Assembly (NCBI GenBank): GCA_004321885.1
Contig: SCQK01000001.1
Location: 1-55,574, forward strand
Origin: Patescibacteria group bacterium
GTDB lineage: Bacteria; Patescibacteriota; Patescibacteriia; Magasanikbacterales; GWA2-37-8
DNA length: 55,574 bases
Reading direction: 5' to 3'
The notes beneath the pieces were generated by a model. The model saw nothing but the letters and a program-made list of their open reading frames with translations, made no database searches and had not been told where the DNA came from. Below are positions 22,693-50,288 of this stretch, piece by piece (the stretch's first letter is position 1; each line of letters opens with the position of its first letter). The translations under genes were made by a program, and so were the position numbers.

Positions 22693-22703
22693 ATAAGCAA
22701 ATT

Positions 22704-22731: not shown

Positions 22732-22854
22732 TTTGTCTGTTCAAGTTTAGCGAAACAGCGCGGAAAAGTCAATTATAGCTTGGGGGATTGATATTTACGC
22801 GGTTTTGTGTTATTTAAGTAAAGTTCACCTTGATAACTCAACCAGGAGGGAGAG

Positions 22855-28592: not shown

Positions 28593-31271
28593 ATGAATCG
28601 CTTAATAATTTTAGACGGCAATGCCATAGTGCATCGCGCCTACCATGCTTTGCCTCCGCTGACCACCAAAGACGGCAAGATGGTGAATGCGGTTTATGGA
28701 TTCGCTTCCATGCTGTTAAAGGTTTGGCAGGATTTGAAACCCACGCACATCGCGGTAACTTTTGACATGGCTGGGCCCACTTTTCGGCACGTTAAATTTA
28801 AAGAATATAAAGCCACGCGCGTGAAGGCGGCTCAAGAATTGTACGACCAGATTCCCCTGACGCACGAACTGGTGTCCGCGTTCGGTCTGGCGATTTACGA
28901 AAAAAAGGGTTATGAGGCCGATGATGTCATCGGCACGCTCGTGGAAAAAACCAGAGACAGCGGTGCCGAGATTTTTATTGTTACCGGCGACAAAGACACC
29001 TTGCAACTGGTGGGCGGCAACGTGAAAGTGTACACCTTGCGCAAGGGCATGAGCGACATCGCGGTTTATGATACCGAGGAAGTGCGGCGCAAGTTTGGTT
29101 TCGGGCCGGAGCTGGTGGTGGATTACAAGGCCCTGGCCGGCGACCCTTCGGACAATATTCCCGGCGTGCCGGGCATTGGCGAAAAGACGGCGACCGAGTT
29201 GATTAAAAAGTTTGGCGGGATTAAGGAGATATATAAAAGAATAGAGAATAAAGAATTTAGAATAAAAGGTGAAATTAAAGATGGCGTGATAAAAAAGTTG
29301 GAAGCTGGCAAAGACAGCGCCCAAATGAGCAAAGAGCTGGCGACTTTGGATTGCGCCGTGCCTGGTTTGGATTTTAAGTTTGATGACTGCAAATTAAAGG
29401 AACTTGATAAAGAAAAAATTATAAAACTTTTCAGCGAATTGGAATTCGTGTCATTGCTCAAGAGAGTGCCGGAGTTCGCGCAGTCGGAAATTGTAAAATC
29501 CCAGTCGCGAAAAATAAAGGACAAAGAAGCGGATTTCAAATTCAATGAAATTAGCGATAAGACGGGATTGGGGAAGCTGAAAAAAATAATACGAGAAAAA
29601 AAGATTTTTGCCTGCCGTTATTTGTCCGGTTTGGTTTTTGTCGTCGGACACGAAGGATTTTTCGTGAAAAAAGAAATGGTTGGCGAGTGCGAGGAAATAT
29701 TTACCGACCCAGAGCTGGAATTGGTGGGGCATGATTTGAAACAGATAGTGAAGGCCATTAAAACAAACCCTCCCCTATTAGGGGAGGGACAGAGGGTGGG
29801 GTATGTCGCCAACAAACTTTTTGACGTCATGGTGGCTTCGTATCTGCTGGCCCCAGGCAGTCGGGCGCATGGCGCGGCTGACATTGTTTTTAAGGTTTTG
29901 GGCAAGCAGTTGCCGGCCGGCACTGGTCAGGAAAGCTTGTTTGGCGTGGACGCGAAGGAGGCGGCGCAAGAGTTGTATTTGCTGGCGCAAGCCGCGGACA
30001 AGCTGAAAGCCGAGTTGATGAAAATTGACGATTATGGCTTGTTTCAAAAGGTGGAAATGCCGCTGGTGTTGGTTTTGGCCGAGATGGAGCTGAACGGAAT
30101 GGCGGTTGATTTGGATATTTTGAGCGAGCTGTCTAAAAAAGTCAGCGGCGAAATTAAAAGCGTGAGCAAAAAGATTTATAAAATGGCGGGCGAGGAGTTT
30201 AACATCGCTTCGCCCCTGCAGTTGCGCGAAGTTTTGTTTGAGAAAATGAATATCCCGACCGAGGGGATAAAAAAAGGCAAGACCGGTTTGTCCACTTCGG
30301 CCGAAGAGCTGGAAAAAATGCGCGGCCTGCATCCGGTAATTGAAGAAATAGAGAATTACCGCGAGCTGGCTAAATTACAAAACACCTATATTGATGTTTT
30401 GCCGACTTTGGTGGACAAAAAAACCGGACGCATCCACACGACTTTTAATCAGACCGTGGCGGCTACCGGCCGGTTGTCCAGTTCAGACCCGAATTTGCAA
30501 AATATTCCCATCCGCACCGAGCTGGGCCAGGAAGTGCGCAAAGCGTTTGTGGCCGGAAAGGGAAATTTGCTGGTGGGCGCGGATTATTCGCAGATAGAAT
30601 TGCGCATCGTGGCGTCACTAGCCGAAGACCAAAAGATGATTGAGATTTTTGAGGCCGGCGAAGACATCCACCGGGCTACGGCCGCGGCTATAAACAACGT
30701 ACCTTTGGAAGCGGTGACCAAAGAGATGCGTCGCGCGGCAAAAGAAGTGAACTTCGGTGTGCTCTATGGCATGGGCGTGCATGGCCTCTCCTGGCGCGCG
30801 GGTATTCCTTATACCCAGGCCAAAGATTTTATTGACAAATATTTTCAGCAGTTTAGCGGAGTGAAAAAATATATTGACCGCACTTTGGAACTGGCCAGAA
30901 AAGACGGTTATTGCGAGACCCTGTTTGGCCGCCGCCGCTATATTCCCGAGCTCAATTCCGACAATCATCAGTTGCGCGCGGCCGCCGAGCGCATGGCCAT
31001 CAATCATCCGGTGCAAGGCACGGCCGCTGACCTGATCAAAATGGCGATGATTGAGGTTTCTAATGTCATTACGAGGAGCGAGGCGACGAAGCAATCCCCT
31101 TCGCCCAAACTCATCCTCCAAGTCCACGACGAATTGGTTTTGGAAGTCAAGGCCGACCAGGCCCAGGCCGTGGCCGCCGAAGTAAAAAAGGCCATGGAAA
31201 GCGTTATCAAACTCCGCGTGCCCGTGGAAGCCCACGTCAAAACCGGCCAGAGTTGGTGGGAACTAAAATGA
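28593..31271 (+). CDS. polA: DNA polymerase I
   Basis: 5'-3' exonuclease N-terminal domain (ILDGNAIVHRAYHA), a 3'-5' exo-like region, and polymerase motifs A, B and C (DYSQIELRI, RRAAKEVNFGVLYG, VHDE). Carries in-frame insertions from repeat families D and C. Confidence 0.95.
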   Translation: MNRLIILDGNAIVHRAYHALPPLTTKDGKMVNAVYGFASMLLKVWQDLKPTHIAVTFDMAGPTFRHVKFKEYKATRVKAAQELYDQIPLTHELVSAFGLAIYEKKGYEADDVIGTLVEKTRDSGAEIFIVTGDKDTLQLVGGNVKVYTLRKGMSDIAVYDTEEVRRKFGFGPELVVDYKALAGDPSDNIPGVPGIGEKTATELIKKFGGIKEIYKRIENKEFRIKGEIKDGVIKKLEAGKDSAQMSKELATLDCAVPGLDFKFDDCKLKELDKEKIIKLFSELEFVSLLKRVPEFAQSEIVKSQSRKIKDKEADFKFNEISDKTGLGKLKKIIREKKIFACRYLSGLVFVVGHEGFFVKKEMVGECEEIFTDPELELVGHDLKQIVKAIKTNPPLLGEGQRVGYVANKLFDVMVASYLLAPGSRAHGAADIVFKVLGKQLPAGTGQESLFGVDAKEAAQELYLLAQAADKLKAELMKIDDYGLFQKVEMPLVLVLAEMELNGMAVDLDILSELSKKVSGEIKSVSKKIYKMAGEEFNIASPLQLREVLFEKMNIPTEGIKKGKTGLSTSAEELEKMRGLHPVIEEIENYRELAKLQNTYIDVLPTLVDKKTGRIHTTFNQTVAATGRLSSSDPNLQNIPIRTELGQEVRKAFVAGKGNLLVGADYSQIELRIVASLAEDQKMIEIFEAGEDIHRATAAAINNVPLEAVTKEMRRAAKEVNFGVLYGMGVHGLSWRAGIPYTQAKDFIDKYFQQFSGVKKYIDRTLELARKDGYCETLFGRRRYIPELNSDNHQLRAAAERMAINHPVQGTAADLIKMAMIEVSNVITRSEATKQSPSPKLILQVHDELVLEVKADQAQAVAAEVKKAMESVIKLRVPVEAHVKTGQSWWELK
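29768..29802. repeat. family D repeat, in-frame in polA
   Basis: ccctcccctattaggggagggacagagggtggggt, translating to NPPLLGEGQRVGYV. Confidence 0.8.
31065..31104. repeat. half-copy of the family C element, in-frame in polA
   Basis: gtcattacgaggagcgaggcgacgaagcaatccccttcgc, translating to VITRSEATKQSPSPK. Confidence 0.6.
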
Positions 31272-31794: not shown

Positions 31795-32709
31795 ATGGGA
31801 CAACTAATAGACGGAAAATTGATTGCCAAGCATATTGAAGCCGAGACCGCAAGGAGAGTGGCTTTGCTCAAGGAGAAAGGAGCGAAACCAAAGCTTGCGG
31901 TTTTTTTAGTCGGCGAAGACAAGCCGTCGCAAAAGTACGTCAAGAAAAAAGGCGAGGCCGCGCAGCGCGTGGGCCTGGATTTTGTTTTACATGAGTTGGC
32001 GGGCGATATTGGCATGGCCGAGTTGGTGGAAAAAATAGAAGACGCCCAGCATAATGAGGAGCTGTCGGGGATAATTATTCAGCTGCCTTTACCCGAACAT
32101 CTGTACACTTCCGAAGTGTTAAACGCCATTCATCCGGAAATTGACGTGGACTGTTTGACCGACGTGAACTTGGGCAAGTTGGTGATGAAGACCAACCACA
32201 TTGTGCCGCCAACACCGGGCGCGGTCATTACTATAATAAAGGATTTGGGCGTGGATTTGGTGGGGAAAAACGTTGTCATTATCGGCGCCGGCGCCTTGGT
32301 AGGCAAGCCGCTTTCCATAATGATGATGAATGAAAGGGCGAGCGTGACCACTTGCAACAGCGCCACGCGCGACACCAAAGAAAAATGCCTGTCCGCCGAT
32401 ATAATCGTGACCGGCGTGGGTAAAAAAGATTTATTGCGCGGTGGTATGGTGAAAGAAGGCGCCATTGTGATAGACACGGGCGTGGCTTTCGTGGATGGGA
32501 AAATGTATGGTGATGTGAACGTGGACGAGGTGATGGAGCGCGCCGCGCACGTGACGCCTACTCCCGGCGGTGTGGGCCCCTTAACCGTGGTGCGCCTTTT
32601 GTGGAATACGGTGCTGTGCGCGGAAAGAAATTTGGAACTTGGGCTGAAACCGCATTCGCGAGAAAGAATAAAATACGAAGGGCATCGGCCGGCGAAGTAT
32701 AAGCTTTAA
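31795..32709 (+). CDS. folD: bifunctional methylene-THF dehydrogenase / methenyl-THF cyclohydrolase
   Basis: IDGKLIAKHI...VGEDKPSQKYVKKK...GxGxxVGKP Rossmann motif. Confidence 0.9.
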   Translation: MGQLIDGKLIAKHIEAETARRVALLKEKGAKPKLAVFLVGEDKPSQKYVKKKGEAAQRVGLDFVLHELAGDIGMAELVEKIEDAQHNEELSGIIIQLPLPEHLYTSEVLNAIHPEIDVDCLTDVNLGKLVMKTNHIVPPTPGAVITIIKDLGVDLVGKNVVIIGAGALVGKPLSIMMMNERASVTTCNSATRDTKEKCLSADIIVTGVGKKDLLRGGMVKEGAIVIDTGVAFVDGKMYGDVNVDEVMERAAHVTPTPGGVGPLTVVRLLWNTVLCAERNLELGLKPHSRERIKYEGHRPAKYKL

Positions 32710-32712
32710 TTA

Positions 32713-32792
32713 CCCCTCCCTAACCCTCCCCTTATAAAGGGGAGGGAAACGTATTGTTCCTCCCCCTTTATAAGGGGGAGGCGAGGAGGGGG
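32713..32792. repeat. tandem pair of family D repeats in the folD-purA intergenic region
   Basis: cccctccctaaccctccccttataaaggggaggg ... cctccccctttataagggggaggcgaggagggggt. Confidence 0.8.
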
Positions 32793-32799
32793 TAAACAT

Positions 32800-34116
32800 A
32801 TGTCACAACTTACTGTCGTGGTTGGCGCCCAGTGGGGCGATGAGGGCAAGGGGAAAATAACCGACTATCTGGCCAAAGACGCCGACTTTGTGGTTCGTTT
32901 CCAAGGAGGCAACAACGCCGGACATACGTTGGTAGTTGGGGATAAAATTTACAAACTACACCTGATTCCATCGGGTGTTTTGTATCCGGGCGCGGTTTCA
33001 ATAATCGGCAACGGCGTGGTGGTGGACCCGCTCACCCTGCTAAAAGAAATCAGCGAGTTTAAAAAAGACGGCCTGGCGCTTAATCTAAAAATCAGCAACC
33101 GTTGTCATGTCATCATGCCATATCACATTGCCTTGGATGGGGCTTTGACCGGACATCAGGGCGGGCTGGCCGCCGGCAGCACCAACCGCGGCATTGCCCC
33201 GGTCTGCGCCGATAAAAGCTATCGTCACGGCATCCGGCTGGGCGATTTGCTGGAACCGGAAATGCTTCGGGAAAAATTAGCCGTGTCATACAATTTCAAC
33301 AAAGCGATTTTGGAAAAAATTTTTAACACGCCTTTCGCCCTGTCGGAAGAAGAAATTTATAATCAGTTTTTGGATTATGGCAAATTATTGGCGCAGTACA
33401 TTGACGATACTGATGTTTTGCTTTATCGCGCCTACAAAGAAGGCAAAAATATCTTGTTTGAAGGGGCGCAGGGTTTGTCCTTGGATCTGGATGTCGGCGT
33501 GTACCCGCATACCACCAGCACCAACACGTTGGCCAGCCATATCGGCGTGGGCACGGGCGTGGGATACGACGGGAATAAACGCGTAATCGGAGTGGCCAAG
33601 GCATACGTGAGCCGCGTGGGCACCAGTCCTTTTATCACCGAACTGCCCGAAGAAGAAGCCAAGGCCTTGCGCGACAAGGGCGGCGAATACGGCACGACCA
33701 CTGGCCGTCCGCGCCGCGTGGGCTGGCTGGATTTGGTGCAACTGCGGCAGGCCGTGCGCTGTAACGGGCTGACTGAATTGGCGCTCATTAAATTGGACGT
33801 GCTAGCCGATTATGAAAAAGTGTTGGTTTGCACCTCGTATGATATAGATGGAAAAGACACCAGAGAAATGCCGGCCAGTTTGTCGCAGTTGCGCCGGGCC
33901 AAACCGGTTTATCAAGAATTCACCGGTTGGCCGGTGATAGATGGAACGGCTTTGAAACAAGGCGGGTTTAAGGGGTTGCCGCTTGAGATAAAAAACTTTG
34001 TGGAGTTTATTGAGAAAGAAACAGAGTGTCCGATCAGTATGTTGTCGTTCGGACCGGAGCGGGAACAAACCATTATTCGTGTCATTGCGAGCGAAGCGAA
34101 GCAATCCCATTCGTAA
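32800..34116 (+). CDS. purA: adenylosuccinate synthetase
   Basis: QWGDEGKGKITD, GGNNAGHT and GTTGRG motifs. The C-terminal 12 aa are encoded by the family C repeat. Confidence 0.95.
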   Translation: MSQLTVVVGAQWGDEGKGKITDYLAKDADFVVRFQGGNNAGHTLVVGDKIYKLHLIPSGVLYPGAVSIIGNGVVVDPLTLLKEISEFKKDGLALNLKISNRCHVIMPYHIALDGALTGHQGGLAAGSTNRGIAPVCADKSYRHGIRLGDLLEPEMLREKLAVSYNFNKAILEKIFNTPFALSEEEIYNQFLDYGKLLAQYIDDTDVLLYRAYKEGKNILFEGAQGLSLDLDVGVYPHTTSTNTLASHIGVGTGVGYDGNKRVIGVAKAYVSRVGTSPFITELPEEEAKALRDKGGEYGTTTGRPRRVGWLDLVQLRQAVRCNGLTELALIKLDVLADYEKVLVCTSYDIDGKDTREMPASLSQLRRAKPVYQEFTGWPVIDGTALKQGGFKGLPLEIKNFVEFIEKETECPISMLSFGPEREQTIIRVIASEAKQSHS

Positions 34117-34163
34117 TTATAGGGATTGCTTCGGTCCCGACTAAGTCGGGGCCTCGCAATGAC
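34081..34163. repeat. composite nested palindromic element (family C arms gtcattgcgag...gaagcaatccc / gggattgcttcg...ctcgcaatgac enclosing a family-B core)
   Basis: Spans the purA stop and the annotated purL start. Confidence 0.8.
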
Positions 34164-36540
34164 AACATCAAATATGATAACGACTGATTTCACGAAAATG
34201 GATGAAGCGCAAATAAAGGAATTTTTGGTTGCCAACAGAATCGCGCTGACGGTGGAAGAAATTTTGAAGATCCAAAACGAAATCTTGAAACGGCCACCCA
34301 CGCTGGCCGAGTGTATTTTGTGGTCCATTCAGGGATCAGAGCACAGCTCGTACAAATCCAGTCGTCCGCACTTGAAACAATTTCACACCAGCGGTCCCAA
34401 CGTAATACTCGGCCCCAGTGAAGACGCCGGCATTGTGGAAATTTGCTGCGACAACGAGGGCCGAAAATACGGCGTAGTGATAAGCCACGAATCGCACAAT
34501 CATCCGTCGCAAGTGGTGCCCTACGAGGGCGCGGCCACGGGCGTAGGCGGCAATGTGCGCGATGTCTGCTGCATGGGCGCGAAAGTAATCGCCTGCGCCG
34601 ACCCTCTGCGCTTCGGACAAATTGACAGTAATAAATCCAAATGGGTGCACGAGGGCGTGGTCTCGGGCATTGCCGGCTATGGCAATCCAATCGGCGTGCC
34701 AAACATCGGCGGCGACTTGTATTACGACGAATCCTACAATGAAAATTGTCTGGTCAACATTGTTACTTTGGGTGTCTTGCGCGAAGACGACATCATACAC
34801 TCGCGCGCGCCGCAAAACGCCGATGGTTATGATTTGGTTTTGGTCGGCAAGCCAACTGACAACAGCGGCTTTGGTGGCGCCAGTTTTGCTTCGTTGGAAT
34901 TAAAAGAAGAAGAAAAAGAACTCAACAAGGGCGCGGTGCAGGAGCCGAACGCTTTTTTGAAGCGCCATTTGCTCAAATCCACCTACGCGCTTTTCAAAAA
35001 AATAAAAGAGGGCGGTTTGATGGATAAAGTGGGTTTCAAAGATTTGGGCGCCGGAGGAATTGCCTGCGCTTCAGTGGAATTGGCCGACGCGGCCGGCTAT
35101 GGCGCCGAAGTGGATATTGATAAAATCCCCAAGGGCATGAACGGACTTAATCCGGCCGTGATTTTGTGCTCCGAGACGCAGGAAAGATTTATGTGGGTGA
35201 GTCATCCGGACGTGACACCGGTTATTTTGGAGCATTATAATGAAATCTTTGATTTGCCCGGCATTGCCGAAGGCGCGCGAGCGGCGGTGGTGGGGAAAAT
35301 TCGCGCTGACGGGCGCTATGTGGTGACAGCCGGCGGAGAAGAAATCGTGAGCGCGCGAGCGCAAGACGTGACACGGGGATTATTGTACAATCGGCCATGG
35401 GAAAAACCCGAGAAAAAATTGAGTGAACCAAACTTGCCCGAGCCAACCGATTACAGTGAAATACTTTTAAAAATTTTGGCCCACGAAAATGTGGCCTCGC
35501 GTTTGCCGGTTTATGAACAGTACGACAAGCAAGTGCAGGGCATCACAATGATTGAATCGGGCCGGGCTGACGCGGGCGTTTTGCAGCCATTTAAGGATGA
35601 CAGTTACCCGGAGGAAATTCGGCAAACCGGCGTCGCTTTGTCAGTGGACCAAAATCCGCGCTACTCCAAGATTGATTCTTATTGGGGGGCGGTAAACGCG
35701 GTAGTGGAAAGCTGCCGCAATGTGGCGGCTGTCGGCGCTGTGCCGTGGGCGTTGACCGATTGTTTGTGCTATGGCAATCCGGAAAAGCCAACCCAGATGT
35801 ATGAATTCGTGGAAGGGGCGCGCGGGGTGGCCGAGGCGGCCAAGGGTTTGCATTTGAAGGACTTCCCGGAAAATCCGGTGCCGATTGTTTCGGGCAATGT
35901 GTCGCTTTACAACGAAAGCAAAGGCAAACCCATCGCTCCCAGCGCCATAATTTCATGCACCGGAAAATTGAGCGACGTGAAGTGCGCGATTGACATGTCG
36001 TTTAAAAAAGCCGACTCAATTATTTTTATGGTCGGCGAGCGCAAAGACGAATGCGGGGGCAGTGTTTATTATAATTTGTTTAAAGAATTGGGAGCCAATG
36101 TACCCAAGCCGGATTTGGCGGAAGCGGAAAAACAAATTTTTGCCGTGACTGACGCGATAGAGGCTGGTCTGGTTTTGGCGGCTCACGATATTTCCGACGG
36201 CGGCTTGGCCGTCTGCTTGGCCGAGATGAGTTTTGGAAATGAGATTGGTTTCGTCTGTCATTCCCGCGAAAGCGGGAATCCAGGGTCGCAACTTCGCCCC
36301 GACAAAGTTCTTTTTTCCGAAACCGGCGGTTTTGTTTTGGAAGTGTCGCCGGAAAACCGCGGCGCAGTGGAAGAAATTTTCGCCAAACGCGGAGTAAAAA
36401 TCTTTGCCATCGGAAAAACCGCCTGTCATTCCGGGCTTGACCCGGGATCCATAACAACGTTAAAGTTTGGAGATGTAATCAACGTACCTTTAAAAGAAGC
36501 AAAAAAAGCGTGGACAGAGGGTTTGTGGGGCAAGCTGTAA
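34126..36540 (+). CDS. purL: phosphoribosylformylglycinamidine synthase subunit PurL
   Basis: PurM-like duplicated domains of FGAM synthase II. The true start is probably MTTSNM at ~34159. Contains an in-frame family A repeat (VCHSRESGNPGSQ). Confidence 0.9.
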   Translation: MLRSRLSRGLAMTTSNMITTDFTKMDEAQIKEFLVANRIALTVEEILKIQNEILKRPPTLAECILWSIQGSEHSSYKSSRPHLKQFHTSGPNVILGPSEDAGIVEICCDNEGRKYGVVISHESHNHPSQVVPYEGAATGVGGNVRDVCCMGAKVIACADPLRFGQIDSNKSKWVHEGVVSGIAGYGNPIGVPNIGGDLYYDESYNENCLVNIVTLGVLREDDIIHSRAPQNADGYDLVLVGKPTDNSGFGGASFASLELKEEEKELNKGAVQEPNAFLKRHLLKSTYALFKKIKEGGLMDKVGFKDLGAGGIACASVELADAAGYGAEVDIDKIPKGMNGLNPAVILCSETQERFMWVSHPDVTPVILEHYNEIFDLPGIAEGARAAVVGKIRADGRYVVTAGGEEIVSARAQDVTRGLLYNRPWEKPEKKLSEPNLPEPTDYSEILLKILAHENVASRLPVYEQYDKQVQGITMIESGRADAGVLQPFKDDSYPEEIRQTGVALSVDQNPRYSKIDSYWGAVNAVVESCRNVAAVGAVPWALTDCLCYGNPEKPTQMYEFVEGARGVAEAAKGLHLKDFPENPVPIVSGNVSLYNESKGKPIAPSAIISCTGKLSDVKCAIDMSFKKADSIIFMVGERKDECGGSVYYNLFKELGANVPKPDLAEAEKQIFAVTDAIEAGLVLAAHDISDGGLAVCLAEMSFGNEIGFVCHSRESGNPGSQLRPDKVLFSETGGFVLEVSPENRGAVEEIFAKRGVKIFAIGKTACHSGLDPGSITTLKFGDVINVPLKEAKKAWTEGLWGKL
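36257..36284. repeat. family A repeat, in-frame in purL
   Basis: gtcattcccgcgaaagcgggaatccagg. Confidence 0.8.
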
Positions 36541-36896: not shown

Positions 36897-38060
36897 ATGT
36901 CAAACATCTCTTATTCCGATTCCGGCGTCAATTACCAGGCGCTTGATCCGGTGAAAAAATTGGCGCAAATCGCGGCCCGGTCCACGGCTCGTCATTTGTC
37001 GTCGTCCGGTTTCACCGAATCAGAAGACACGCGCGGCGAGTCGGCTTATGTTTGGCAGCAAGGCGACCTCCTGATGGCCTCGGTCATTGAAGGCCTGGGC
37101 ACCAAAAATTTGGTGGCTGACGCCATGCGTAAAATTACCGGCAAGACCTATTACGATATTGTCAGCCACGATACTGTGGCTACGATTATAAACGATCTTG
37201 TTTCGGTGGGCGCCAAGCCGCTTGCTCTCTTCGCTTACTGGGCCGTGGGCAAAAGCGAATGGCTGGCCGACGCGGAAAGGACAAAGGATTTGGCGGACGG
37301 CTGGAAGTCGGCTTGTGATTTAGCCCAAGTTTCCTGGGGAGGCGGCGAAACCCCCGCCTACGCCGGCATCATTAATCCGGAGACCATTGATTTGGCAGGT
37401 TCGGCCGTGGGTATTATTAAAGATAAAAATAATTTGCTCACGGACAAAAAAATACAGGCCGGAGACAGGATAATTTTTTTGAAAAGCAACGGCATAAACG
37501 CCAACGGTTTGTCGCTGGCGCGCGCGATTGCAAATACCCCCTCCTCGCCTCCCCCTTATAAAGGGGGAGGAAATCGTCTCCCTCCCCTTTATAAGGGGAG
37601 GGTTGGGGAGGGGTATGGTGCCAAGCTGCCAAGTGGCGTAATGTACGGAGAAGCATTACTCACAAAAACAAACATCTACGCGAAATTGGTACAGGACTTG
37701 CAGGCGGCAGAAGTAGATATACATTATATTACAAATATCACCGGACATGGATTGCGTAAAGTTATGCGCGGTAGGCCGAATTTTACATACGTAATAGAGA
37801 AAATTTTTGAACCGCTGGAATTATTTATTTTTATGCAAGGTCAGGCCGGGCTTTCGGATTTTGAAATGTATCAGACGTTTAACATGGGGCAGGATTACGC
37901 GATTTACTTATCAGCCGCCGACGTGGCCCGCGCTTTGGAAGTGATAAAACAAAATAATTTTACAGGCATTGAGGCGGGTTTTGTGGAAGCGGGCGAAAAG
38001 CGCGTGATAATCAAACCGAAGAATTTAGAGTATAAAGGAGAGACGTTGGATTTGAGATAA
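36897..38060 (+). CDS. purM: phosphoribosylformylglycinamidine cyclo-ligase (AIR synthetase)
   Basis: SYSDSGVNYQALDP and PurM N- and C-terminal domain patterns. Contains a tandem in-frame family D insertion (SPPPYKGGGNRLPPLYKGRVGEG). Confidence 0.85.
   Translation: MSNISYSDSGVNYQALDPVKKLAQIAARSTARHLSSSGFTESEDTRGESAYVWQQGDLLMASVIEGLGTKNLVADAMRKITGKTYYDIVSHDTVATIINDLVSVGAKPLALFAYWAVGKSEWLADAERTKDLADGWKSACDLAQVSWGGGETPAYAGIINPETIDLAGSAVGIIKDKNNLLTDKKIQAGDRIIFLKSNGINANGLSLARAIANTPSSPPPYKGGGNRLPPLYKGRVGEGYGAKLPSGVMYGEALLTKTNIYAKLVQDLQAAEVDIHYITNITGHGLRKVMRGRPNFTYVIEKIFEPLELFIFMQGQAGLSDFEMYQTFNMGQDYAIYLSAADVARALEVIKQNNFTGIEAGFVEAGEKRVIIKPKNLEYKGETLDLR
37537..37614. repeat. tandem family D repeats, in-frame in purM
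   Basis: cccctcctcgcctcccccttataaagggggagg...cctcccctttataaggggagggttggggaggggt. Confidence 0.8.
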
Positions 38061-38065
38061 ACATT

Positions 38066-39412
38066 ATGAAAGTCGCCATCATACAATTCCCCGGCAGTAA
38101 CTGTGAATCGGAATCCATTTACGCGGTGCGGCGCGCCGGCATGGAGCCGGTGGAATTTTTGTGGAATCAAGAGCACGACGAGCTGAAAAATTTTGACGGC
38201 TATTTCATCGTGGGCGGATTTTCCTACGAAGACCGCTCGCGCTCGGGCATCATCGCCTCGCTTGATCCCCTGCTTACCGCCTTGAAAGCGGAAAACGAAA
38301 AAGGCAAACCGATTCTGGGCGTTTGCAATGGGGCGCAGATTTTGGTGGAGTCGGGCATTGTGCCGGGCCTAGCCGACTATGCCGTGGGCCACCACACCAA
38401 AGATTTTGGTGTGGTGGCAGGTATGGCGCTCGCTGTAAACAAACGAGTGAAAGACGGACGCGTGCTGGGCACCGGATTTTATAATTCCTGGTCCAACGTC
38501 CAACTGTCGGCCCCGAGCGAACGCTCGGCTTTCACGCGCCACATGAAGCCGGGCGAATTTATAAATATTCCCGTGGCGCACGGCGAAGGCCGCTTTACCA
38601 TGCCGGACGAACTCTTGGCCGAATTGATTGTCAAAAACCAAACAGTGTTTCGCTACTGCGATGACAGGGGAGAAATCAGTTCGGAATTTCCGGTAAATCC
38701 GAACGGCTCCATGCATAATTTAGCGGCTGTCTGCAACGCGGCCGGCAACGCCATGGCCATGATGCCCCACCCCGAACGCACGCCGAACGGCCAAGCCATT
38801 TTTACTTCCATGCGCGAGTATGTTGAAAAAGAAAAAACCATAACGATGAAAAACGTTACGGATAATTTCCGGCCAACCGTGATGGAAATATCCGAGTATA
38901 AGCCGGAACCAAATTCTACAGAATTAGTCATCGGTTTAATCATTACAGACAATGAAGCCGGCACGGTAAAAAATACTTTGCGTCGGTTGAATATTGACGC
39001 GGAAATTACGAAATACATTCACTGGGAAATTTCGGCTGACGACCCGGCGACGATTGTCGCTTCGCCGGCTTGCCGCGACGAGCTATTTAACTCCAACAAA
39101 GAAAAGATAGTGCAACTGGGCTCCACAGCCCCGGTCGCCTGCGGCGACCGTGGGACTATGGAGTCAACCAATGCGCTTCAGAATGACAATACGGCTTATC
39201 TGCTCGTGCGCTATCGCGAAGATTTCGTGGGGCAAAGCAAACAGTATGTTTTGGAAAATCGGCTGGGCGTTTCCGGGGTTAAAAAGATAACCAAAGGCAC
39301 GCTCTGGAAAATTTCCGCGCCCAGTGATAGGATTGAGGAAATCGTAAGCAAGGTTATTTCCAGCAGGATTTTATTCAATCAATTTTCACAGGGGTGTTTT
39401 AAATATATATAG
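38066..39412 (+). CDS. purQ: FGAM synthase glutaminase subunit PurQ with a ~210-aa C-terminal extension, possibly tandem PurS-like domains
   Basis: Class I glutamine amidotransferase triad: GVCNGAQIL Cys and the His in PHPER. The extension resembles two ~85-aa PurS-like modules. Confidence 0.8.
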   Translation: MKVAIIQFPGSNCESESIYAVRRAGMEPVEFLWNQEHDELKNFDGYFIVGGFSYEDRSRSGIIASLDPLLTALKAENEKGKPILGVCNGAQILVESGIVPGLADYAVGHHTKDFGVVAGMALAVNKRVKDGRVLGTGFYNSWSNVQLSAPSERSAFTRHMKPGEFINIPVAHGEGRFTMPDELLAELIVKNQTVFRYCDDRGEISSEFPVNPNGSMHNLAAVCNAAGNAMAMMPHPERTPNGQAIFTSMREYVEKEKTITMKNVTDNFRPTVMEISEYKPEPNSTELVIGLIITDNEAGTVKNTLRRLNIDAEITKYIHWEISADDPATIVASPACRDELFNSNKEKIVQLGSTAPVACGDRGTMESTNALQNDNTAYLLVRYREDFVGQSKQYVLENRLGVSGVKKITKGTLWKISAPSDRIEEIVSKVISSRILFNQFSQGCFKYI

Positions 39413-39413: not shown

Positions 39414-40805
39414 ATGGATTACACTTCCATCATCAGACAAAATCTGAATAATTGTCTGACGCAGACGAATTTAAATATCGGCAAGAAAAAAATTGGCAAG
39501 GTGCGCGATACCTATGAACTCGCCGATAAAATGATTCTAGTCACTACTGACCGACAGAGCGCTTTTGACCGCATTTTGGCTTCCATCCCGTTTAAGGGGC
39601 AAGTGCTCAATCAAACCAGCGCCTGGTGGTTTGAAAAAACCAAACACATTATCCCCAATCATGTTTTGTCTATCCCCGACCCCAACGTGACCATGGCCAA
39701 AAAATGCCAAGTTTTTCCGATTGAGTTTGTGGTGCGCGGGTATATCACCGGCACCACCGACACTTCGGCTTGGGTAAATTATCAAAAAGGGGTGCGTAAT
39801 TTTTGCGGCAACGCTTTACCCGAGGGTCTGAAAAAAAATCAGCAGCTGGCCAAGGCGATTGTCACGCCCACCACCAAGTCCGACGCCCACGACCGTCTGA
39901 TCAGTCCCGAAGAGATTATCGCCGAAGGACTGATGTCGCGTGAAGATTGGAACTTCGCTTCAACCAAGGCCCTGGAACTTTTTGAATTCGGCCAACAAGT
40001 GGCTCGCGAGCACGGCTTGATTTTGGTTGACACCAAATACGAGATGGGTAAAGACGAAAACGGCAATATTATTTTGTTAGACGAGATCCACACGCCCGAT
40101 TCCAGTCGCTATTGGATCGCCGAAACATACGAAGACCGTTTCGCCGCCGGACAAGAACCGGAAAACATAGATAAAGAATTTTTGCGCTTGTGGTTTAAAG
40201 AACACTGCGACCCGTATGGCGACAAAGAACTGCCGCCGGCGCCCGAGGAATTGGTGGTGGAATTATCCCGCCGCTATATCATGCTTTACGAAATGATTAC
40301 TGGCGAAAAATTTGTTTTCCCGGAGGACGCCGACATCAACGAGAGAATGAAAAATAATTTGGCTGTCATCGCGAACTCTCCTCTGAGAATAAACTCCGCA
40401 AAGCAACCCCCCGCAAAAAGGGCGGTGATAATAATGGGTTCGGAAGCGGACGCGGAGTTCACGAAAAAGATTACGATAAAATTGGACGAACTGGGGGTCA
40501 GCCACGAAGAGCATGTCGCGTCGGCGCACAAACAGCCGGCAAAGGTTTTGGAAATTTTAGAGAAAAATAAAAATGAGAAAGTGGTGTACGTGACCATCGC
40601 CGGCCGTTCCAACGCGCTCTCGGGTTTTGTGGCCGCCAATTCCGACGCGCCCACCCTGGCCTGTCCACCCTTTGTCGACAAGCTGGATATGCTCGTGAAC
40701 ATTCACTCTACTTTGCAGATGCCGAGTAACGCGCCAGTTTTAACCGTGCTTGATCCAGGCAACTGCGCCTTGGCCGTTAAAAGAATTTTTGATATATGTC
40801 GCTAA
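39414..40805 (+). CDS. purC: fusion protein: SAICAR synthetase (PurC) plus C-terminal PurE (AIR carboxylase / N5-CAIR mutase) domain
   Basis: PurC N-terminal motif GKVRDTY...VTTDRQSAFD. PurE C-terminal motif AVIIMGSEADAE...VASAHKQP...VTIAGRSNALSGFVAANSDAPTLACPP. Confidence 0.85.
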   Translation: MDYTSIIRQNLNNCLTQTNLNIGKKKIGKVRDTYELADKMILVTTDRQSAFDRILASIPFKGQVLNQTSAWWFEKTKHIIPNHVLSIPDPNVTMAKKCQVFPIEFVVRGYITGTTDTSAWVNYQKGVRNFCGNALPEGLKKNQQLAKAIVTPTTKSDAHDRLISPEEIIAEGLMSREDWNFASTKALELFEFGQQVAREHGLILVDTKYEMGKDENGNIILLDEIHTPDSSRYWIAETYEDRFAAGQEPENIDKEFLRLWFKEHCDPYGDKELPPAPEELVVELSRRYIMLYEMITGEKFVFPEDADINERMKNNLAVIANSPLRINSAKQPPAKRAVIIMGSEADAEFTKKITIKLDELGVSHEEHVASAHKQPAKVLEILEKNKNEKVVYVTIAGRSNALSGFVAANSDAPTLACPPFVDKLDMLVNIHSTLQMPSNAPVLTVLDPGNCALAVKRIFDICR

Positions 40806-42132: not shown

Positions 42133-42214
42133 GTCATTGCGAGGAGGCCTGCAGGCCGACGCGGCAATCCCTTACAAGTTTGGGATTGCTTCGGCCTAAA
42201 GGCCTCGCAATGAC
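42133..42214. repeat. family C composite palindromic element filling the purB-purF intergenic region
   Basis: gtcattgcgag-gaggcctgcaggcc...gcaatccc / gggattgcttcggcctaaaggcc-tcgcaatgac. Confidence 0.8.
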
Positions 42215-42222: not shown

Positions 42223-45072
42223 ATGTGCGGAGTTGTAGGAATTTATTCCAAAAAACCAGTGGCGCAGGAATTGTATGATTCTTTAATCCACTTACAGCAT
42301 CGCGGGCAAGACGCGGCCGGCATTTTGACGTACCAAGAAAAATTTCATTTCAAAAGGGGGCTGGGACTGGCGCGCGATATTTTCCACACGCACGACATGG
42401 AGCGGCTCACCGGCAATATCGGCATCGCGCACACGCGCTACCCCACCACCGGCCGCATTGAAATTGAAGATGCCCAGCCGTTTTGGACCGGCGTGCCTTT
42501 TGGCATGGCCTTGGCGCATAACGGCAATCTGGTAAATTACAACGAGGTCAAGCGTAAGGTTTTTGAAGAACGTCATCGCTATGTCAACTCCACCAGCGAC
42601 GGCGAAGTAATTTTGCACGTGTTGGCCGATGAGTTGGTAAAAGGCATGGCAGAAAATCACGTTGATACTTTTTTTGACCTGCTGTGCGACGCCGTGGCCC
42701 GTCTTTTCAAAGCGACCAGCGGAGCATATTCAGTGGTCAGCATTATCGTGGGCAAGGGCATGCTGGCGTTTCGCGATCCGCATGGCATCCGTCCGCTCAC
42801 GCGTGGCGCGCGCGTCAATCCCGATGGCAGCAAGGACTATATTTTTGCTTCCGAAAACATCATGTTTTATCCGCTTGGCTTTAAGCAAGAAGAGGATGCA
42901 AAACCCGGCGAGGTGATATTTATAGACAACGACGGCAATTTACACAGCAGAGTGGTTGGACGCGAAGCCGCTTTGGGCCAGCGCGAACCCGAATTTTCTC
43001 CTTGCATTTTTGAATACATTTATTTCGCGCGCCCAGACTCTATGATGAATAACGTGAGCGTGTACCGCTCGCGTCTGCGCATGGGACAAAATTTGGCCAA
43101 GGCGTGGAAGACAAAATTTCCCAACGTAATGCCCGACGTCGTCATACCCGTGCCTTTCACTTCCAACACCGCGGCATTGGCCATGGCGCACGAACTCGGC
43201 GTGCGCTACAGCGAAGGACTTTATAAAAACGCCTTCATCGGCCGCACTTTTATCATGCCCAATCAGGAATTGAGGCGAAAGTCAGTGCGCTACAAGCTTA
43301 ATCCGCAGGAAACGGAAATTCGGGACAAAAATGTGATGCTTTTGGACGACAGCATCGTGCGCGGCACGACCAGCCGTGAAATCGTGCAAATGATGCGTGA
43401 GTTTGGAGCCAAGGAAGTATATTTTGTCACCACTTGCCCGCCGGTCAAATTTCCGTGCTTTTACGGAGTGGACATGCCTACGAAATCAGAACTTGTCGCG
43501 TCGGCCCGGACCGAAGAAGAAGTGAGATTATATATCGGCGCTGATATTTTGCTTTATCAAAACATTCCCGACTTGGTGGAAGCAGTCACGCGCGTTCAAA
43601 GCATAGAGCACCCATGTATGGCTTGCCTGAACGGGCACTACGTGACCGGCGACGTGGATGAAAAAAAATTTAAAGAAATAGAAGCGAGTAGAAATAAAGA
43701 TAAGGGGATTAAAAAATCTATGGATATACTTATTATCGGTTCAGGAGCACGCGAGCATGCGATTGCGCGCGCGGTGGTTCGCTCACCGCAAAAACCGCGG
43801 CTGTTTTGTTTTGCTTCAAGCAACAACCCGGGCATACGCGAACTATCGGTCGGTTACGCGGTGGGAAAAATTACCGACCCAACGGCGGTGATAAATTTCG
43901 CCAAAGAGAACGCGATTGATATCGCTATCGTGGGCCCCGAAGCCCCGCTGGCCTCTGGCGTGGCTGACGCCTTGTGGGCGGCAGGCGTGGCTTGTGTTGG
44001 ACCAAAGCAAAAATTGGCGCGGCTGGAAACGAGTAAGGGTTTTACGCGCGATTTACAGGCCGAATTTAAGATTCCGGGCAGTCCGAAATACAAAAAATTC
44101 AGTTCTTTGGAAGGGGCTAAAGAATTTTTATCCGAGCTCGGCGATTTGTACGTGGTAAAAGCGGACGGCCTGATGGGAGGCAAAGGAGTGAAAGTGGCCG
44201 GGGATCATTTGCATACTTATGAAGAAGCGCTGGCCTATTGTCAGGAATTATTGGATAGTTGTCATTCCCGCGAAAGCGGGAATCCAGGTGCGGCCTTTGT
44301 CATCGAAGAAAAGTTAATCGGCCAGGAATTTTCACTGATGAGTTTTTGCGACGGCGAGCATTTGGCTCACACGCCCGCGGTTCAAGATCACAAGCGGGCT
44401 TTTGACGGCGACCAGGGGCCAAACACGGGAGGCATGGGAAGTTATAGCGACGCGGATCATAAATTGCCTTTTTTGACTGATGAAGATATCTGGCAGGCGC
44501 GCGAGATAAATAAAAAAACCGCGGTGGCTTTGAAGGCGAAATTCGGGGAGGGATATGTTGGTGTTTTGTATGGAGGATTTATGGCTACGGCGGACGGAGT
44601 AAAATTGATAGAGTATAATGCCCGTTTGGCCGACCCGGAGGCGATGAACATATTGGCCGTGCTGGAATCGGATTTCGCGGCGCTGTGTCAGGCGATTGTG
44701 GGCGGAAATTTAAGACAAGAGCACGCGCTTTTCGCGAACAAGGCGACGGTTTGTAAATACGCCGTGCCCGAGGGCTACCCGGACAGTCCGGTAAAAAATC
44801 AAAAAATAGACACGAGCGGCGTAGCCGACAAAAATCAATTGTATTTGGCTTCGGTTGACGCGCGAGATGATGGGTTGTACGAACTGGGCTCGCGCGCCAT
44901 CGCGGTGGTGGGCGTGGCCGATACAATTGCCGAGGCGGAAAAAATTGCGGAAGCGGAAGTCAACAATATCAAAGGCCCGCTGTTTCACCGTCAAGACATT
45001 GGAACTCCGGAATTAATTAATAAGAGAATCCAACACATGTCATTCCTGCGAAAGCAGGAATCCAGGATATGA
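42223..45072 (+). CDS. purF: fusion protein: amidophosphoribosyltransferase (PurF) plus phosphoribosylamine-glycine ligase (PurD)
   Basis: N-terminal MCGVVGI nucleophile and PRTase domain to ~aa 480. A continuous frame then runs into the PurD ATP-grasp domain (MDILIIGSGAREHAIA...). Two in-frame family A repeats. Confidence 0.85.
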   Translation: MCGVVGIYSKKPVAQELYDSLIHLQHRGQDAAGILTYQEKFHFKRGLGLARDIFHTHDMERLTGNIGIAHTRYPTTGRIEIEDAQPFWTGVPFGMALAHNGNLVNYNEVKRKVFEERHRYVNSTSDGEVILHVLADELVKGMAENHVDTFFDLLCDAVARLFKATSGAYSVVSIIVGKGMLAFRDPHGIRPLTRGARVNPDGSKDYIFASENIMFYPLGFKQEEDAKPGEVIFIDNDGNLHSRVVGREAALGQREPEFSPCIFEYIYFARPDSMMNNVSVYRSRLRMGQNLAKAWKTKFPNVMPDVVIPVPFTSNTAALAMAHELGVRYSEGLYKNAFIGRTFIMPNQELRRKSVRYKLNPQETEIRDKNVMLLDDSIVRGTTSREIVQMMREFGAKEVYFVTTCPPVKFPCFYGVDMPTKSELVASARTEEEVRLYIGADILLYQNIPDLVEAVTRVQSIEHPCMACLNGHYVTGDVDEKKFKEIEASRNKDKGIKKSMDILIIGSGAREHAIARAVVRSPQKPRLFCFASSNNPGIRELSVGYAVGKITDPTAVINFAKENAIDIAIVGPEAPLASGVADALWAAGVACVGPKQKLARLETSKGFTRDLQAEFKIPGSPKYKKFSSLEGAKEFLSELGDLYVVKADGLMGGKGVKVAGDHLHTYEEALAYCQELLDSCHSRESGNPGAAFVIEEKLIGQEFSLMSFCDGEHLAHTPAVQDHKRAFDGDQGPNTGGMGSYSDADHKLPFLTDEDIWQAREINKKTAVALKAKFGEGYVGVLYGGFMATADGVKLIEYNARLADPEAMNILAVLESDFAALCQAIVGGNLRQEHALFANKATVCKYAVPEGYPDSPVKNQKIDTSGVADKNQLYLASVDARDDGLYELGSRAIAVVGVADTIAEAEKIAEAEVNNIKGPLFHRQDIGTPELINKRIQHMSFLRKQESRI
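44261..44288. repeat. family A repeat, in-frame in the purD portion
   Basis: gtcattcccgcgaaagcgggaatccagg, translating to SCHSRESGNPGA. Confidence 0.8.
45039..45066. repeat. family A variant (cctgcg/cagg) at the purFD 3' end / purN start
   Basis: gtcattcctgcgaaagcaggaatccagg. Confidence 0.75.
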
Positions 45073-45654: not shown

Positions 45655-47235
45655 ATGCATACAGAAGTCGTTAGAATAAATCGGGCGCTGATTTCGGTGT
45701 CAAATAAAACCGGCATAGCGGAGTTTGCCCGCGAACTCCAAAAATTGGGCGTGGAAATAATTTCCACCGGCGGCACGCACAAATTGCTTTGCGAAAACAA
45801 AATACCGGCCGTGGAAATTTCCCAGTACACCGGCTTTCCGGAAATGATGGACGGCCGCGTGAAAACCCTGCACCCCTTGGTGCACGGTGGCATCTTGGGT
45901 TTGCGGGATAAACACGCCGAAGCCGCAGCCGGCCATAATATTAAATGGATTGATTTGGTGGTTTGCAATTTGTATCCTTTTTTGGAAACAATAAAAAAAC
46001 CCGGCGTAACCGAGGAGGAAGCGATTGAAAACATAGACATCGGCGGGCCCACCATGATTCGCTCGGCCGCCAAAAATATTGGCTGGACGTGCGCGGTGGT
46101 TGACCCCGAGGATTATAGTAAAATTTTGGCTGAAATAAGAGAAAAAAACGGAGTAAGTTTTGACACGCGCAAAGCACTTTCGGCGAAAGCGTACGCGCAC
46201 ACGACGCGCTATGACGCGGTGATTTCCAATTATTTCAAGCCGGAAAAATTTCCCAAAGAACTCTCGCTCGGTTTTGCTAAATATTATGATTTGCGCTACG
46301 GCGAAAATCCGCATCAGCAAGCCGCGGCCTACAAAGACGAGCTCTGCGCCACAGCGAATATTTTTTTAGCGAAAATCTTGCAGGGCAAGCAGTTATCGTA
46401 CAACAATTTCATTGACGCGGACGCGGCCCTGCAGATGGTAAAGGAATTTGAGCCGCCGGCTTGCGTGATTGTGAAGCATAACAATCCCTGCGGAGCGGCC
46501 ATTGCCGAAAACGCGGAAGCGGCTTTCGCCAAAGCGTTTGCCTGCGATTCGTTGTCGGCTTTCGGCGGGGTGGTGGCGCTTAATCGCGAGTGCGACGCGG
46601 CTCTGGCCGAGAAACTCTCCAAAATATTTTTGGAAATCGTGCTCGCGCCCAAGTTCGCGCCTGCGGCCGTGGAAATTTTATCTAAAAAACAAAATCTGCG
46701 CTTGCTGGAATTGGAAAAAATATCAGTGCCGGCCAGCCGGCTGACTTACAAGCTGATTGAGGGTGGGCTCTTGGCGCAAGACAGCAATACAAAAGAAATT
46801 ACCGAAGCGGATTTGAAAGTCGTGACCAAGCGCCGGCCCGAAACAGGCGAAATTCAAGCCATGCTCTTCGCCTGGAAAATATTGAAGCACATGAAATCAA
46901 ACGCCATTTTGATAGCCAAGGCCGACGCCACGGTGGGAATCGGCGTGGGCCAAGTGTCACGCGTGGATTCGGTGGATATTGCCATAAAAAAATCCGGTAT
47001 GGCTGGCTCCATAGTCCCCGACTTAGTCGGGGCCGTGGAGCCGTTCGCCGGCTGCGTGCTGGCCTCGGACGCCTTTTTCCCCTTCCGCGACAGCATAGAC
47101 AAAATCGCGGCCGCCGCCGGCGTCAAAGCCATTGTCCAGCCCGGGGGTTCCATCAAAGACCAGGAAGTCATCGCGGCCTGCGACGAACACGGCATCGCCA
47201 TGGTCTTTACCGGCCATCGCTGTTTCGCGCATTGA
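45655..47235 (+). CDS. purH: bifunctional AICAR transformylase / IMP cyclohydrolase
   Basis: MGS-like N-terminal region (ALISVSNKTG) and the AICARFT domain. Contains an in-frame family B repeat. Confidence 0.95.
   Translation: MHTEVVRINRALISVSNKTGIAEFARELQKLGVEIISTGGTHKLLCENKIPAVEISQYTGFPEMMDGRVKTLHPLVHGGILGLRDKHAEAAAGHNIKWIDLVVCNLYPFLETIKKPGVTEEEAIENIDIGGPTMIRSAAKNIGWTCAVVDPEDYSKILAEIREKNGVSFDTRKALSAKAYAHTTRYDAVISNYFKPEKFPKELSLGFAKYYDLRYGENPHQQAAAYKDELCATANIFLAKILQGKQLSYNNFIDADAALQMVKEFEPPACVIVKHNNPCGAAIAENAEAAFAKAFACDSLSAFGGVVALNRECDAALAEKLSKIFLEIVLAPKFAPAAVEILSKKQNLRLLELEKISVPASRLTYKLIEGGLLAQDSNTKEITEADLKVVTKRRPETGEIQAMLFAWKILKHMKSNAILIAKADATVGIGVGQVSRVDSVDIAIKKSGMAGSIVPDLVGAVEPFAGCVLASDAFFPFRDSIDKIAAAAGVKAIVQPGGSIKDQEVIAACDEHGIAMVFTGHRCFAH
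47007..47044. repeat. family B 38-bp palindrome, in-frame in purH
   Basis: ggctccatagtccccgacttagtcggggccgtggagcc, translating to GSIVPDLVGAVEP. Confidence 0.8.
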
Positions 47236-50038: not shown

Positions 50039-50096
50039 TTTTCCATTTTTTAGCTGGTTTTGGGGTATGTGGCGACACAATGGTATCTGACATTCA

Positions 50097-50134
50097 GGCT
50101 CTACAGCCCCGACTAAGTCGGGGACTATGGAGCC
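50097..50134. repeat. family B 38-bp palindrome
   Basis: ggctctacagccccgactaagtcggggactatggagcc. Confidence 0.8.
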
Positions 50135-50168
50135 GGCGATGACAGCGATGGTCAGAAAGATAGTAGCC

Positions 50169-50230: not shown

Positions 50231-50250
50231 GGTTACATTATAGGCATTTA

Positions 50251-50288
50251 GGCTCTACAGCCCCGACTAAGTCGGGGACTATGGAGCC
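50251..50288. repeat. family B 38-bp palindrome
   Basis: ggctctacagccccgactaagtcggggactatggagcc. Confidence 0.8.

Follow-up and report, generated by a model that had tools for sequence, protein, structure and literature searches.

Palindromic repeats that lie in frame within protein-coding genes are best known from Rickettsia. The Rickettsia palindromic elements (RPEs) of Ogata et al. (2000, 2002), summarised in later reviews (PMC10969869, PMC3733652), are repeats of about 150 bp that form ten families, with 44 insertions in open reading frames (ORFs) in R. conorii, and a 2024 review describes the frequency of their in-frame insertion as unusually high (PMC10969869). [quoted passage not shown] Coding palindromes have so far been a Rickettsia oddity plus scattered intragenic REPs and MITEs (PMC10969869, PMC3733652). 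Here we consider a palindromic repeat, which we call family D, in a stretch of 55,574 nucleotides from a Patescibacteria group bacterium (assembly GCA_004321885.1, contig SCQK01000001.1, positions 1 to 55,574; hereafter the window), where copies lie in frame within five genes. Family D is probably a small, non-autonomous selfish palindrome, similar to a MITE or to REPs and their paired form (REPINs), whose in-frame copies survive selection much as RPEs do. The parallel with the RPEs was drawn in the first-pass annotation of this DNA, and it is apt as a description of a way of working.

Family D was set against chance by means of its core CCCCTTATMAAGGGG, with up to two mismatches tolerated. 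The window contains 11 matches to this core against 0.23 expected from 100 shuffles, none of which reached 11. A repeat search of the window recovered six direct copies of a 42-nt unit along with several inverted pairs, and an nhmmer profile built on the units found nine clear half-units (E from 7e-12 to 2e-5) and a degenerate tenth. We count eight loci, six of them inside five genes and two intergenic. The first-pass annotation had reported the repeat and its copies; the family is real, the coordinates agree with ours to within 2-3 nt, and both intergenic copies were recovered.

The unit is a palindrome of 36-40 nt that occurs either alone or as an inverted two-arm hairpin. It reads TACCCCYCCC, then a linker (TAAC, CGCC or CGAC), CCTCCCC, the loop TTATMAA, GGGGAGG and AAA, with a single G-run able to pair with either of the two C-runs. 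The complete form has two inverted units around an 8-9-nt spacer and is found at two loci, neither of which is assigned a strand: an 84-nt element at 32711-32794, between folD (31795-32709) and purA (32800-34116), and an 81-nt element (27 codons) at 37535-37615, inside purM. Both are predicted to form hairpins of about 40 bp, at -56 kcal/mol for the intergenic element and -58 kcal/mol for the other (z from about -5.6 to -5.8; the RNA hairpin of the purM element folds at -57.9 kcal/mol, z = -5.6), while the value for single units is about -19 kcal/mol. The element in purM is a reversed version of the intergenic one. Its arm at 37535-37572 is complementary to 32757-32794 at 38 of 38 positions, and the other arm matches at 87% over 53 nt. 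Searches of Rfam, at gathering scores and again with permissive E-values, returned no described RNA family, only generic hairpins far below threshold.

The five host genes were identified by Pfam and all lie on the forward strand. purM (36897-38060, AIRS and AIRS_C domains) holds the two-arm element, and the other four hold single units. The gene for a fusion of Memo-like and PGA_cap domains (ORF 2246-4012) has two forward-strand copies, both recovered by the repeat search and the profile: one at 2331-2366, in the linker between an N-terminal hydrophobic segment and the Memo domain and read in sense frame 2 as PPSNSPLIKGG, and a second at 2448-2483, 117 nt downstream, 90% identical to the first and read in the same frame as PPTSSPLSKGG. 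In lspA (6323-6829) the copy is at 6591-6626 on the forward strand and encodes PPLNLPLSKGE in the loop preceding the conserved GALSNLxDR helix. In holA, for the delta subunit of DNA polymerase III (47247-48260), it is at 47798-47835, also forward, and is read in sense frame 1 as TPPRPPPYQGE after the conserved QL(V/A)AY motif. The polA copy (29770-29805 in a gene spanning 28593-31271) is in reverse orientation, read antisense as PLLGEGQRVGY, and belongs to a sub-variant with the loop TAATA. The only other member of that sub-variant is the second intergenic copy, a degenerate one on the reverse strand at 15908-15968 between rnpA and yidD, which is broken by a nested, unrelated palindrome. The nested sequence, CCTGCCTGCCGGCAGGCAGG at 15930-15949, is a perfect 20-nt palindrome that occurs once in the window.

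Judged by alignment with orthologues, the family D segment is an insertion and not ancestral sequence in four of the five hosts, namely purM, holA, polA and lspA. The PurM segment is absent from all 19 orthologues (65-75% identity), which read ARA(L/I)A-KKLPxGY where the window protein reads ARAIA-NTPSSPPPYKGGGNRLPPLYKGRVGE-GY, for a net gain of 21 amino acids; the insert includes the stretch ARAIANTPSSPPPYK. Alignment of PurM to the PDB breaks at the same place, and the syntenic pur operon DNA of Magasanikbacteria has no palindrome at this site. The suggestion that the inserted peptide occupies a surface loop agrees with the AlphaFold2 model of PurM, where residues 215-237 are predicted as coil with a pLDDT (predicted local distance difference test) below 50, between helices 205-212 and 236-241, in a protein whose core is folded confidently. 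HolA orthologues are commonly 320 amino acids long, the basal ones lacking the segment, and the window protein has 14 additional residues after QL(V/A)AY, at a position between two Pfam domains. In PolA, the window protein has KT-NPPLLGEGQRVGY-VANK in place of the K(L)-KN-V-E-VKNK found in most of 120 orthologues, a gain of about 10 amino acids. LspA, compared with 19 orthologues, has three private inserts, corresponding to three different palindromic elements in the gene (6446-6475, 6591-6626 and 6798-6823), and the family D insert lies in a loop of variable length before GALSNLxDR.

These comparisons were made over some evolutionary distance. The window PurM, HolA and PolA share 60-71% identity with proteins from Candidatus Magasanikbacteria and other Patescibacteria, and a collection of 5.8 billion proteins held nothing closer to the three, the next PurM being 71% identical. 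Gene order is conserved with relatives only as far as the pur operon, so the polA and holA orthologues were gathered by protein search. Against this background the identity of the purM arm to the intergenic copy (38 of 38), in a genome whose closest relative has host genes only about 70% identical, supports recent copying. It also bears on the view that the Pro/Gly-rich segments are ancestral low-complexity loops that resemble one another with no insertion having taken place. That view would account for the small net length difference from orthologues in lspA and at the first copy in the Memo-PGA_cap fusion, but the DNA copies are far more alike than the host genes are, copies also lie between genes, and the segment is missing from every PurM orthologue and from basal HolA and PolA orthologues. 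We regard it as extremely unlikely overall and, going by the alignments, as already contradicted for purM, holA and polA.

All six intragenic loci preserve the host frame, as had been claimed in the first-pass annotation, and are free of stop codons, and the peptides they encode (NLPPSNSPLIKGGEN, DLPPTSSPLSKGGET, RPPLNLPLSKGEG, NPPLLGEGQRVGY, NTPSSPPPYKGGGNRLPPLYKGRVGEGY and VTPPRPPPYQGEGV) are the similar Pro/Gly-rich sequences quoted there. The accompanying claim that the copies are read in a single phase has to be given up, as four phases are in use: sense 2 three times, sense 1 twice, and antisense 1 and antisense 2 once each. Because several phases are used, it is the C and G runs that make the peptides alike, not a common phase. 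Three frames of the unit are always open, sense 2 (PPxNxPLxKGG), antisense 1 and antisense 2, and stops are usually present in sense frame 0 and antisense frame 0. For sense frame 1 (TPPxPPPY(K/Q)G) to be open, the TAAC linker has to be replaced, and CGCC or CGAC stands in its place in both copies that use this frame.

Without translation, preservation of the frame at all six loci would have an expectation of (1/3)^6. No intragenic copy introduces a frameshift or a stop, which argues that the inserts are most likely translated as part of the host proteins. The contrary idea is that the segments are cut from the message or bypassed by the ribosome, in the manner of mitochondrial 'byp' elements or T4 gene 60; on that view, finding them in ORFs would not bear on what proteins tolerate. 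In yeast mitochondria GC-rich mobile hairpins are indeed bypassed in translation, and the purM hairpin is very stable, but preservation of frame and absence of stops at six of six loci is a constraint expected only under translation, and the two copies in the stop-prone frame both lack the TAA of the canonical linker. We consider bypassing very unlikely here.

The loops that carry family D in the window have received other sequences in related organisms. At least 10 distinct inserts, located either after QLVAY or in a second loop, are found in HolA orthologues, among them TPHPTLSSERRG, VIPA..AGIQ, VILSASEESL..DSSTPLRVGRND and ATATPPRPPLERGGG. The PolA loop in relatives carries CHPE..., SLRGAERRSNP, RDPSLRLGTGSAI and others, and of the 121 PolA sequences in the alignment, 29 have one or more rare inserts that are 8 or more amino acids long. 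The LspA loop likewise has other palindrome-encoded inserts in related Patescibacteria. Because relatives carry different palindrome-encoded peptides at the holA, polA and lspA sites, these are permissive loops that have taken up many independent insertions. In Magasanikbacteria-like genomes, many different palindrome-encoded peptides, CHPERSEGS, SLRGAERRSNP, LDSRFGGNDN and VIPAQAGIQ among them, occur in two loops of holA and one each of polA and lspA. Some of the recurring loop peptide types may also occur outside the candidate phyla radiation (CPR).

Family D is not restricted to one lineage: the same unit, with the same two-arm architecture, is found in Cyanobacteria, Nitrospirota, Gammaproteobacteria and other Patescibacteria. 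A scan of 185,579 species genomes with the pattern TACCCC-N11-CCCCTTANNAAGGGG gave at least 117 loci. Among the matches listed, most are from Cyanobacteria (Nostoc, Microcoleus, Chamaesiphon, Tychonema and Dolichospermum), and the others come from Nitrospirota, Nitrospinota, Verrucomicrobiota, a metagenome-assembled genome of Pseudomonadota, and Patescibacteria (Magasanikbacteria, Nomurabacteria and Saccharibacteria). Positions left free by the pattern are conserved as well. A Nostoc copy (TACCCCACCCTAACCCTCCCCTTATAAAGGGGAGGGAAC...TTTCCCCCCTTTATAAGGGGGGATTAAGGGGGGTAA) has both arms, the TAAC linker and the loop as they are in the intergenic copy of the window, and the two-arm architecture is also present in Magasanikbacteria and Photobacterium. 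BLAST found the element in plasmids of Nostoc, Dolichospermum and Pseudanabaena with E down to 4e-11, one plasmid copy lying within an annotated type I polyketide synthase gene, and gave further matches in Aeromonas, Rahnella and Pelobacter. No phage vector came to light: there was no BLAST hit for the window element in 50,697 phage records and no match to the pattern in 2.9 million viral contigs. Matches in Parelusimicrobium and Elusimicrobium (TACCCCCTTCGGGTACTCCCC...) look like a different hairpin and were excluded from family D.

The location of the copies differs among these groups. Cyanobacterial copies are essentially extragenic, with none of the roughly 95 matches listed being spanned by a long ORF; outside the Cyanobacteria, about 9 of the 27 matches listed are in frame within long ORFs. 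By Pfam, the in-frame hosts elsewhere include CarB, RnfC, alanine racemase, an MrfA-type helicase, PrmC, Tgt, inositol monophosphatase, a GT4 glycosyltransferase and BlaR1. The long ORF around one scan copy (locus L005) has the look of a spurious frame rich in arginine, and this copy was left out of the intragenic cases. A PrmC/HemK homologue of Ca. Magasanikbacteria GW2011_GWC2_37_14 (locus positions 3254-4324) has a complete two-arm element in frame (LPLPNLPLIKGKETRRSFFPPLYKGRIKEGY), together with an extra Pro/Gly-rich stretch, LPSPTRGGETNNSSPYKGEVGGGF, that resembles other repeats. The gammaproteobacterial replicon NZ_CP073579.1 of Photobacterium sp. GJ3 (1.69 Mb) has the two-arm architecture in 27 places, and at 1223601-1224461 it carries tandemly spaced copies with the termini AACCCC...GGGGTT.

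The wide distribution bears on two further explanations. The contig was assembled from a metagenome and repeats are classic sites of misassembly, so the copies might in principle be collapsed or chimerically joined repeats, an artefact of assembly or binning. We find this hardly credible, as a continuous reading frame supported by orthologues runs on both sides of each copy, and family D is also present in the closed genomes of isolates and in plasmids (Nostoc sp. C117, Photobacterium sp. GJ3 and Nostoc C052). Alternatively, family D might be a co-opted functional module, either an RNA or DNA hairpin acting in mRNA stability, in the pausing of translation at domain boundaries or in protein binding, or a Pro/Gly linker that is itself selected. 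The conservation of the unit and its two-arm architecture across phyla is striking, the stability of the hairpin is very high (-58 kcal/mol), and several inserts do lie at domain boundaries, as in CarB, alanine racemase and holA, where the insert is between Pfam domains. Most orthologues, however, have no insert; hosts, sites, orientation and phase are all heterogeneous; the same loops in relatives accept unrelated palindromes; the purM peptide is predicted to be disordered; and Rfam has no such family. A functional module seems to us improbable, and we return to a selfish palindrome as the probable identity of family D.

The ends of the element provide some indication of how it might move. 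In 50 complete copies from many genomes, T precedes TACCCC in 47 and A follows GGGGTA in 43. The complete copies have terminal inverted repeats TTACCCCYCCC...GGGRGGGGTAA, with TA at both ends, T before and A after, and the nearest orthologue DNA is too diverged to provide a clean empty site. Termini of the form T-TACCCC...GGGGTA-A would fit either duplication of TA in an NTAN target or a terminal inverted repeat that includes TTA. Orthologue DNA has the sequence ATTAC at the place of the purM insert and, for the second fusion copy, a few bases upstream of its site; this was not relied on, as the register is uncertain at 56-70% protein identity.

We envisage that the complete form, an 81-91-nt hairpin with these termini, would be copied into new sites in trans by an enzyme encoded outside the window. 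Because the genome is about 93% coding, most landing sites would be genes. As four of the six frames of the unit are stop-free and give a Pro/Gly-rich peptide, an insertion of a multiple of three nucleotides in a surface loop or inter-domain linker could be tolerated; it would add nothing more than a flexible loop and would survive purifying selection, which would act as a filter through which all other insertions are lost. Surviving in-frame copies would be transcribed and translated within the host protein, and copies that keep the frame, lack stops and lie in loops would come to be the majority in a genome of this coding density. In the window, six of the eight loci are intragenic at a coding fraction of 0.927.

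As for the enzyme, the evidence is mixed, and we assign family D to neither the REP/REPIN nor the MITE class. A TA-targeting DDE transposase of the IS630/Tc1 type, with family D as a MITE, is a serious possibility that falls short of an even chance. We rate it slightly above a Y1 enzyme of the REP-associated tyrosine transposase (RAYT) type, with family D being REP/REPIN-like, which we think unlikely. Our guess is that the remaining share belongs to some other enzyme or to recombinational spread.

Several observations weigh against a selfish element spread in this way. There is no clean pair of filled and empty sites, the next PurM being 71% identical, and hence no proven target-site duplication. 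No transposase was found by Pfam, Y1_Tnp included, among the 48 ORFs of the window, which is 55 kb of the genome, and neither the window nor 118 related loci have a pair of termini 0.4-3.5 kb apart that could mark a candidate parent insertion sequence (IS). Five of the eight loci are single units without a second terminus, which a cut-and-paste MITE would not directly give. An 85-nt non-coding element that is near-identical across phyla is more conserved than pure selfish drift predicts. The earlier claim of insertion stands for purM, holA, polA, lspA and the second fusion copy, which adds 7 amino acids relative to the sole orthologue of the Memo-PGA_cap fusion (56% identity); it is less certain for the first fusion copy, which shows no net gain against that orthologue. 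In lspA, moreover, the net length gain from family D is small, and LSKGEG aligns to the native LKKGET of Pseudomonas LspA. At lspA and at the first fusion copy, the alignments do not distinguish simple insertion from replacement or old decay.

Family D is one of at least six palindromic families with in-frame copies in the window, the others numbering at least five. As an unbiased test within the pur operon, the window PurA, PurL, PurM and PurQ were each aligned with two orthologues, and each window-specific insertion of 4 or more amino acids falls on a repeat that is palindromic in the DNA. A second family, GTCATTCCCGCGAAAGCGGGAATC, encoding CHSRESGNP or CHSRESGNPG, is in frame in purL and the purF-purD ORF (36253-36288, 44257-44292 and 45035-45070) and has intergenic copies at 14952-14987 and 22700-22735; one copy lies immediately upstream of the dnaA start. 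A third family, GTCATTGCGAG...GAAGCAATCC, encoding VI(A/T)(S/R)EA(K/T)QS, is in frame in polA and at the C-terminus of purA, and its form GTCATT(G/A)CGAG...GAAGCAATCC occurs at 31064-31100, 34081-34107, 53616-53698 and 42183-42214. The polA insert at 31064-31100, unrelated to family D, encodes the peptide VITRSEATKQSP; the last 10 codons of purA (IASEAKQSHS) are a copy of this family, and an inverted pair lies close to the 5' end of ORF 53555-54580.

The fourth family, CCACACCAAAnnTTTTGGTGTGG, is in frame in lspA at 6446-6475 (9 additional amino acids, PPHQNFWCGG) and in purQ at 38388-38417 (11 additional amino acids, GHHTKDFGVVA), and orthologues lack both inserts. A fifth, whose core is CCCGACTAAGTCGGG and whose longer arms are GGCTCYACAGCCCC...GGGGACTATGGAGCC, lies in frame within purH and in the C-terminal end of lspA. 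Its positions are 6798-6823, 34129-34154, 47001-47042, 50091-50137, 50245-50291, 54566-54608 and 39119-39165, and its sites include the lspA C-terminus, the annotated purL start, the interior of purH and, twice, the region downstream of two tRNA genes. A variant of the fifth family with a different inner loop adds 18 amino acids to purQ. A palindrome of the GGCTCCACAGCCCC...GGGACTATGGAG type, counted as a further family, is in frame in purQ. Two pairs of pur genes are fused. The purC and purE genes, separate in relatives, form a 463-aa ORF (39414-40805), and the DNA of their junction (VIANSPLRINSAKQP, 40365-40408) is a degenerate palindrome of the GTCAT..GCAA type, so this fusion may have been created by a repeat. 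The purF and purD genes form one 949-aa ORF (42223-45072), are separate in a relative, and have no palindrome at the junction.

A greedy ORF map assigns the window 48 genes at a coding fraction of 0.927. Besides the hosts discussed above, the content is housekeeping and includes dnaA, dnaN, rnpA, yidD, a class A penicillin-binding protein, trigger factor, a proton-pumping pyrophosphatase, folD and a complete pur operon. The cluster of dnaN, dnaA, rnpA and yidD at 12221-16273, together with a minimum of the cumulative GC skew at about 10-12 kb, suggests that the replication origin is within the window. The putative origin region is flanked by the repeat copies at 14952-14987 and 15908-15968. 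A lower-GC stretch at 16-20 kb includes a gene for an AbiEii-type nucleotidyltransferase toxin (17713-18996; type IV toxin-antitoxin) beside an unannotated 204-aa ORF.

The kind of feature described here is known from RPEs, intragenic REPs and in-frame MITE fusions. New are the sequence family (with no tag, no Rfam entry and no description that we could find in the literature), the CPR host, the density and coexistence of several families, and the near-identity of copies from different phyla; the literature likewise yielded no description of in-frame coding palindromes in the CPR. Coding palindromes are dense in this Patescibacteria genome and reach core replication, envelope and purine-synthesis genes, cyanobacteria, Nitrospirota and Gammaproteobacteria have a family D that agrees with that of the window at almost every base, and the same protein loops have been struck repeatedly by different families in related lineages. 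Such insertions account for many lineage-specific indels and for unusual peptides, Pro/Gly-rich or of the "VIASEAKQS" type, in protein predictions from metagenomes. They matter for annotation, since the repeats can create start sites, C-terminal extensions and gene fusions, and they offer a natural map of loops that tolerate insertion. They also raise the testable question of which enzyme spreads one 85-nt element across phyla. A broader reading, which we hold only tentatively and think rather doubtful, is that family D is one lineage of pan-bacterial palindromes that cross phyla, are the main source of loop insertions in gene-dense Patescibacteria and are moved by an enzyme that has yet to be connected with them. 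If true, it would make coding palindromes a general route by which proteins evolve in streamlined bacteria, beyond Rickettsia.

It remains to place family D among the described systems. It differs from introns and inteins in being in frame, too short for catalytic domains and without an Rfam match. With the 'byp' elements it shares the presence of mobile GC-rich hairpins inside protein-coding genes, but bypassed inserts break the frame and must be skipped, whereas family D keeps the frame and is stop-free. MITEs such as Nezha, the Anabaena MITEs, Correia, ERIC and the Coxiella QMITE, like family D, are bounded by terminal inverted repeats, form a stable hairpin and code for nothing themselves (PMC3184786, PMC10969869, PMC5896051); occasional in-frame fusions with host ORFs are a further likeness, and the TA ends of family D are compatible with a TA duplication. 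Family D is nevertheless much shorter than typical MITEs, its one-ended single units are abundant, and no parent IS with its termini was found in the window or the 118 loci.

With REPs and REPINs (Bertels and Rainey 2011, PMC3116915) family D has in common a short imperfect palindrome, in the range of 20-40 nt and repeated many times, whose copies are either single or paired in inverted orientation across a short spacer, the pairs forming a long hairpin. REPs are found in replication and repair genes (PMC3733652), as family D is in polA and holA, but family D lacks the unpaired GTAG or CGTC tag that REPs have at one end (PMC3733652); its termini are TACCCC/GGGGTA, and only a few copies read GGGGTAG. 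REPs are mainly extragenic, whereas family D is intragenic at six of eight loci in the window, though essentially extragenic in cyanobacteria, and the 55-kb window, a part of the genome, has no RAYT gene. Near-identity across phyla is not known to have been described for REPIN-RAYT systems.

Family D is set apart from the RPE families by length, host and description, not by sequence comparison. RPEs are about 100-150 bp long, while family D units are 36-40 nt and its doublets 81-84 nt; RPEs belong to Alphaproteobacteria (Rickettsiales), while the present host falls in the Patescibacteria, its best protein matches being to Patescibacteria and Ca. Magasanikbacteria; and RPEs are described as particular to Rickettsia, while family D is common to free-living bacteria of several phyla. 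What family D and the RPEs share is the manner of their occurrence: palindromes in frame in many unrelated housekeeping genes, several families in one small genome, and insertion in loops compatible with the fold of the host protein.

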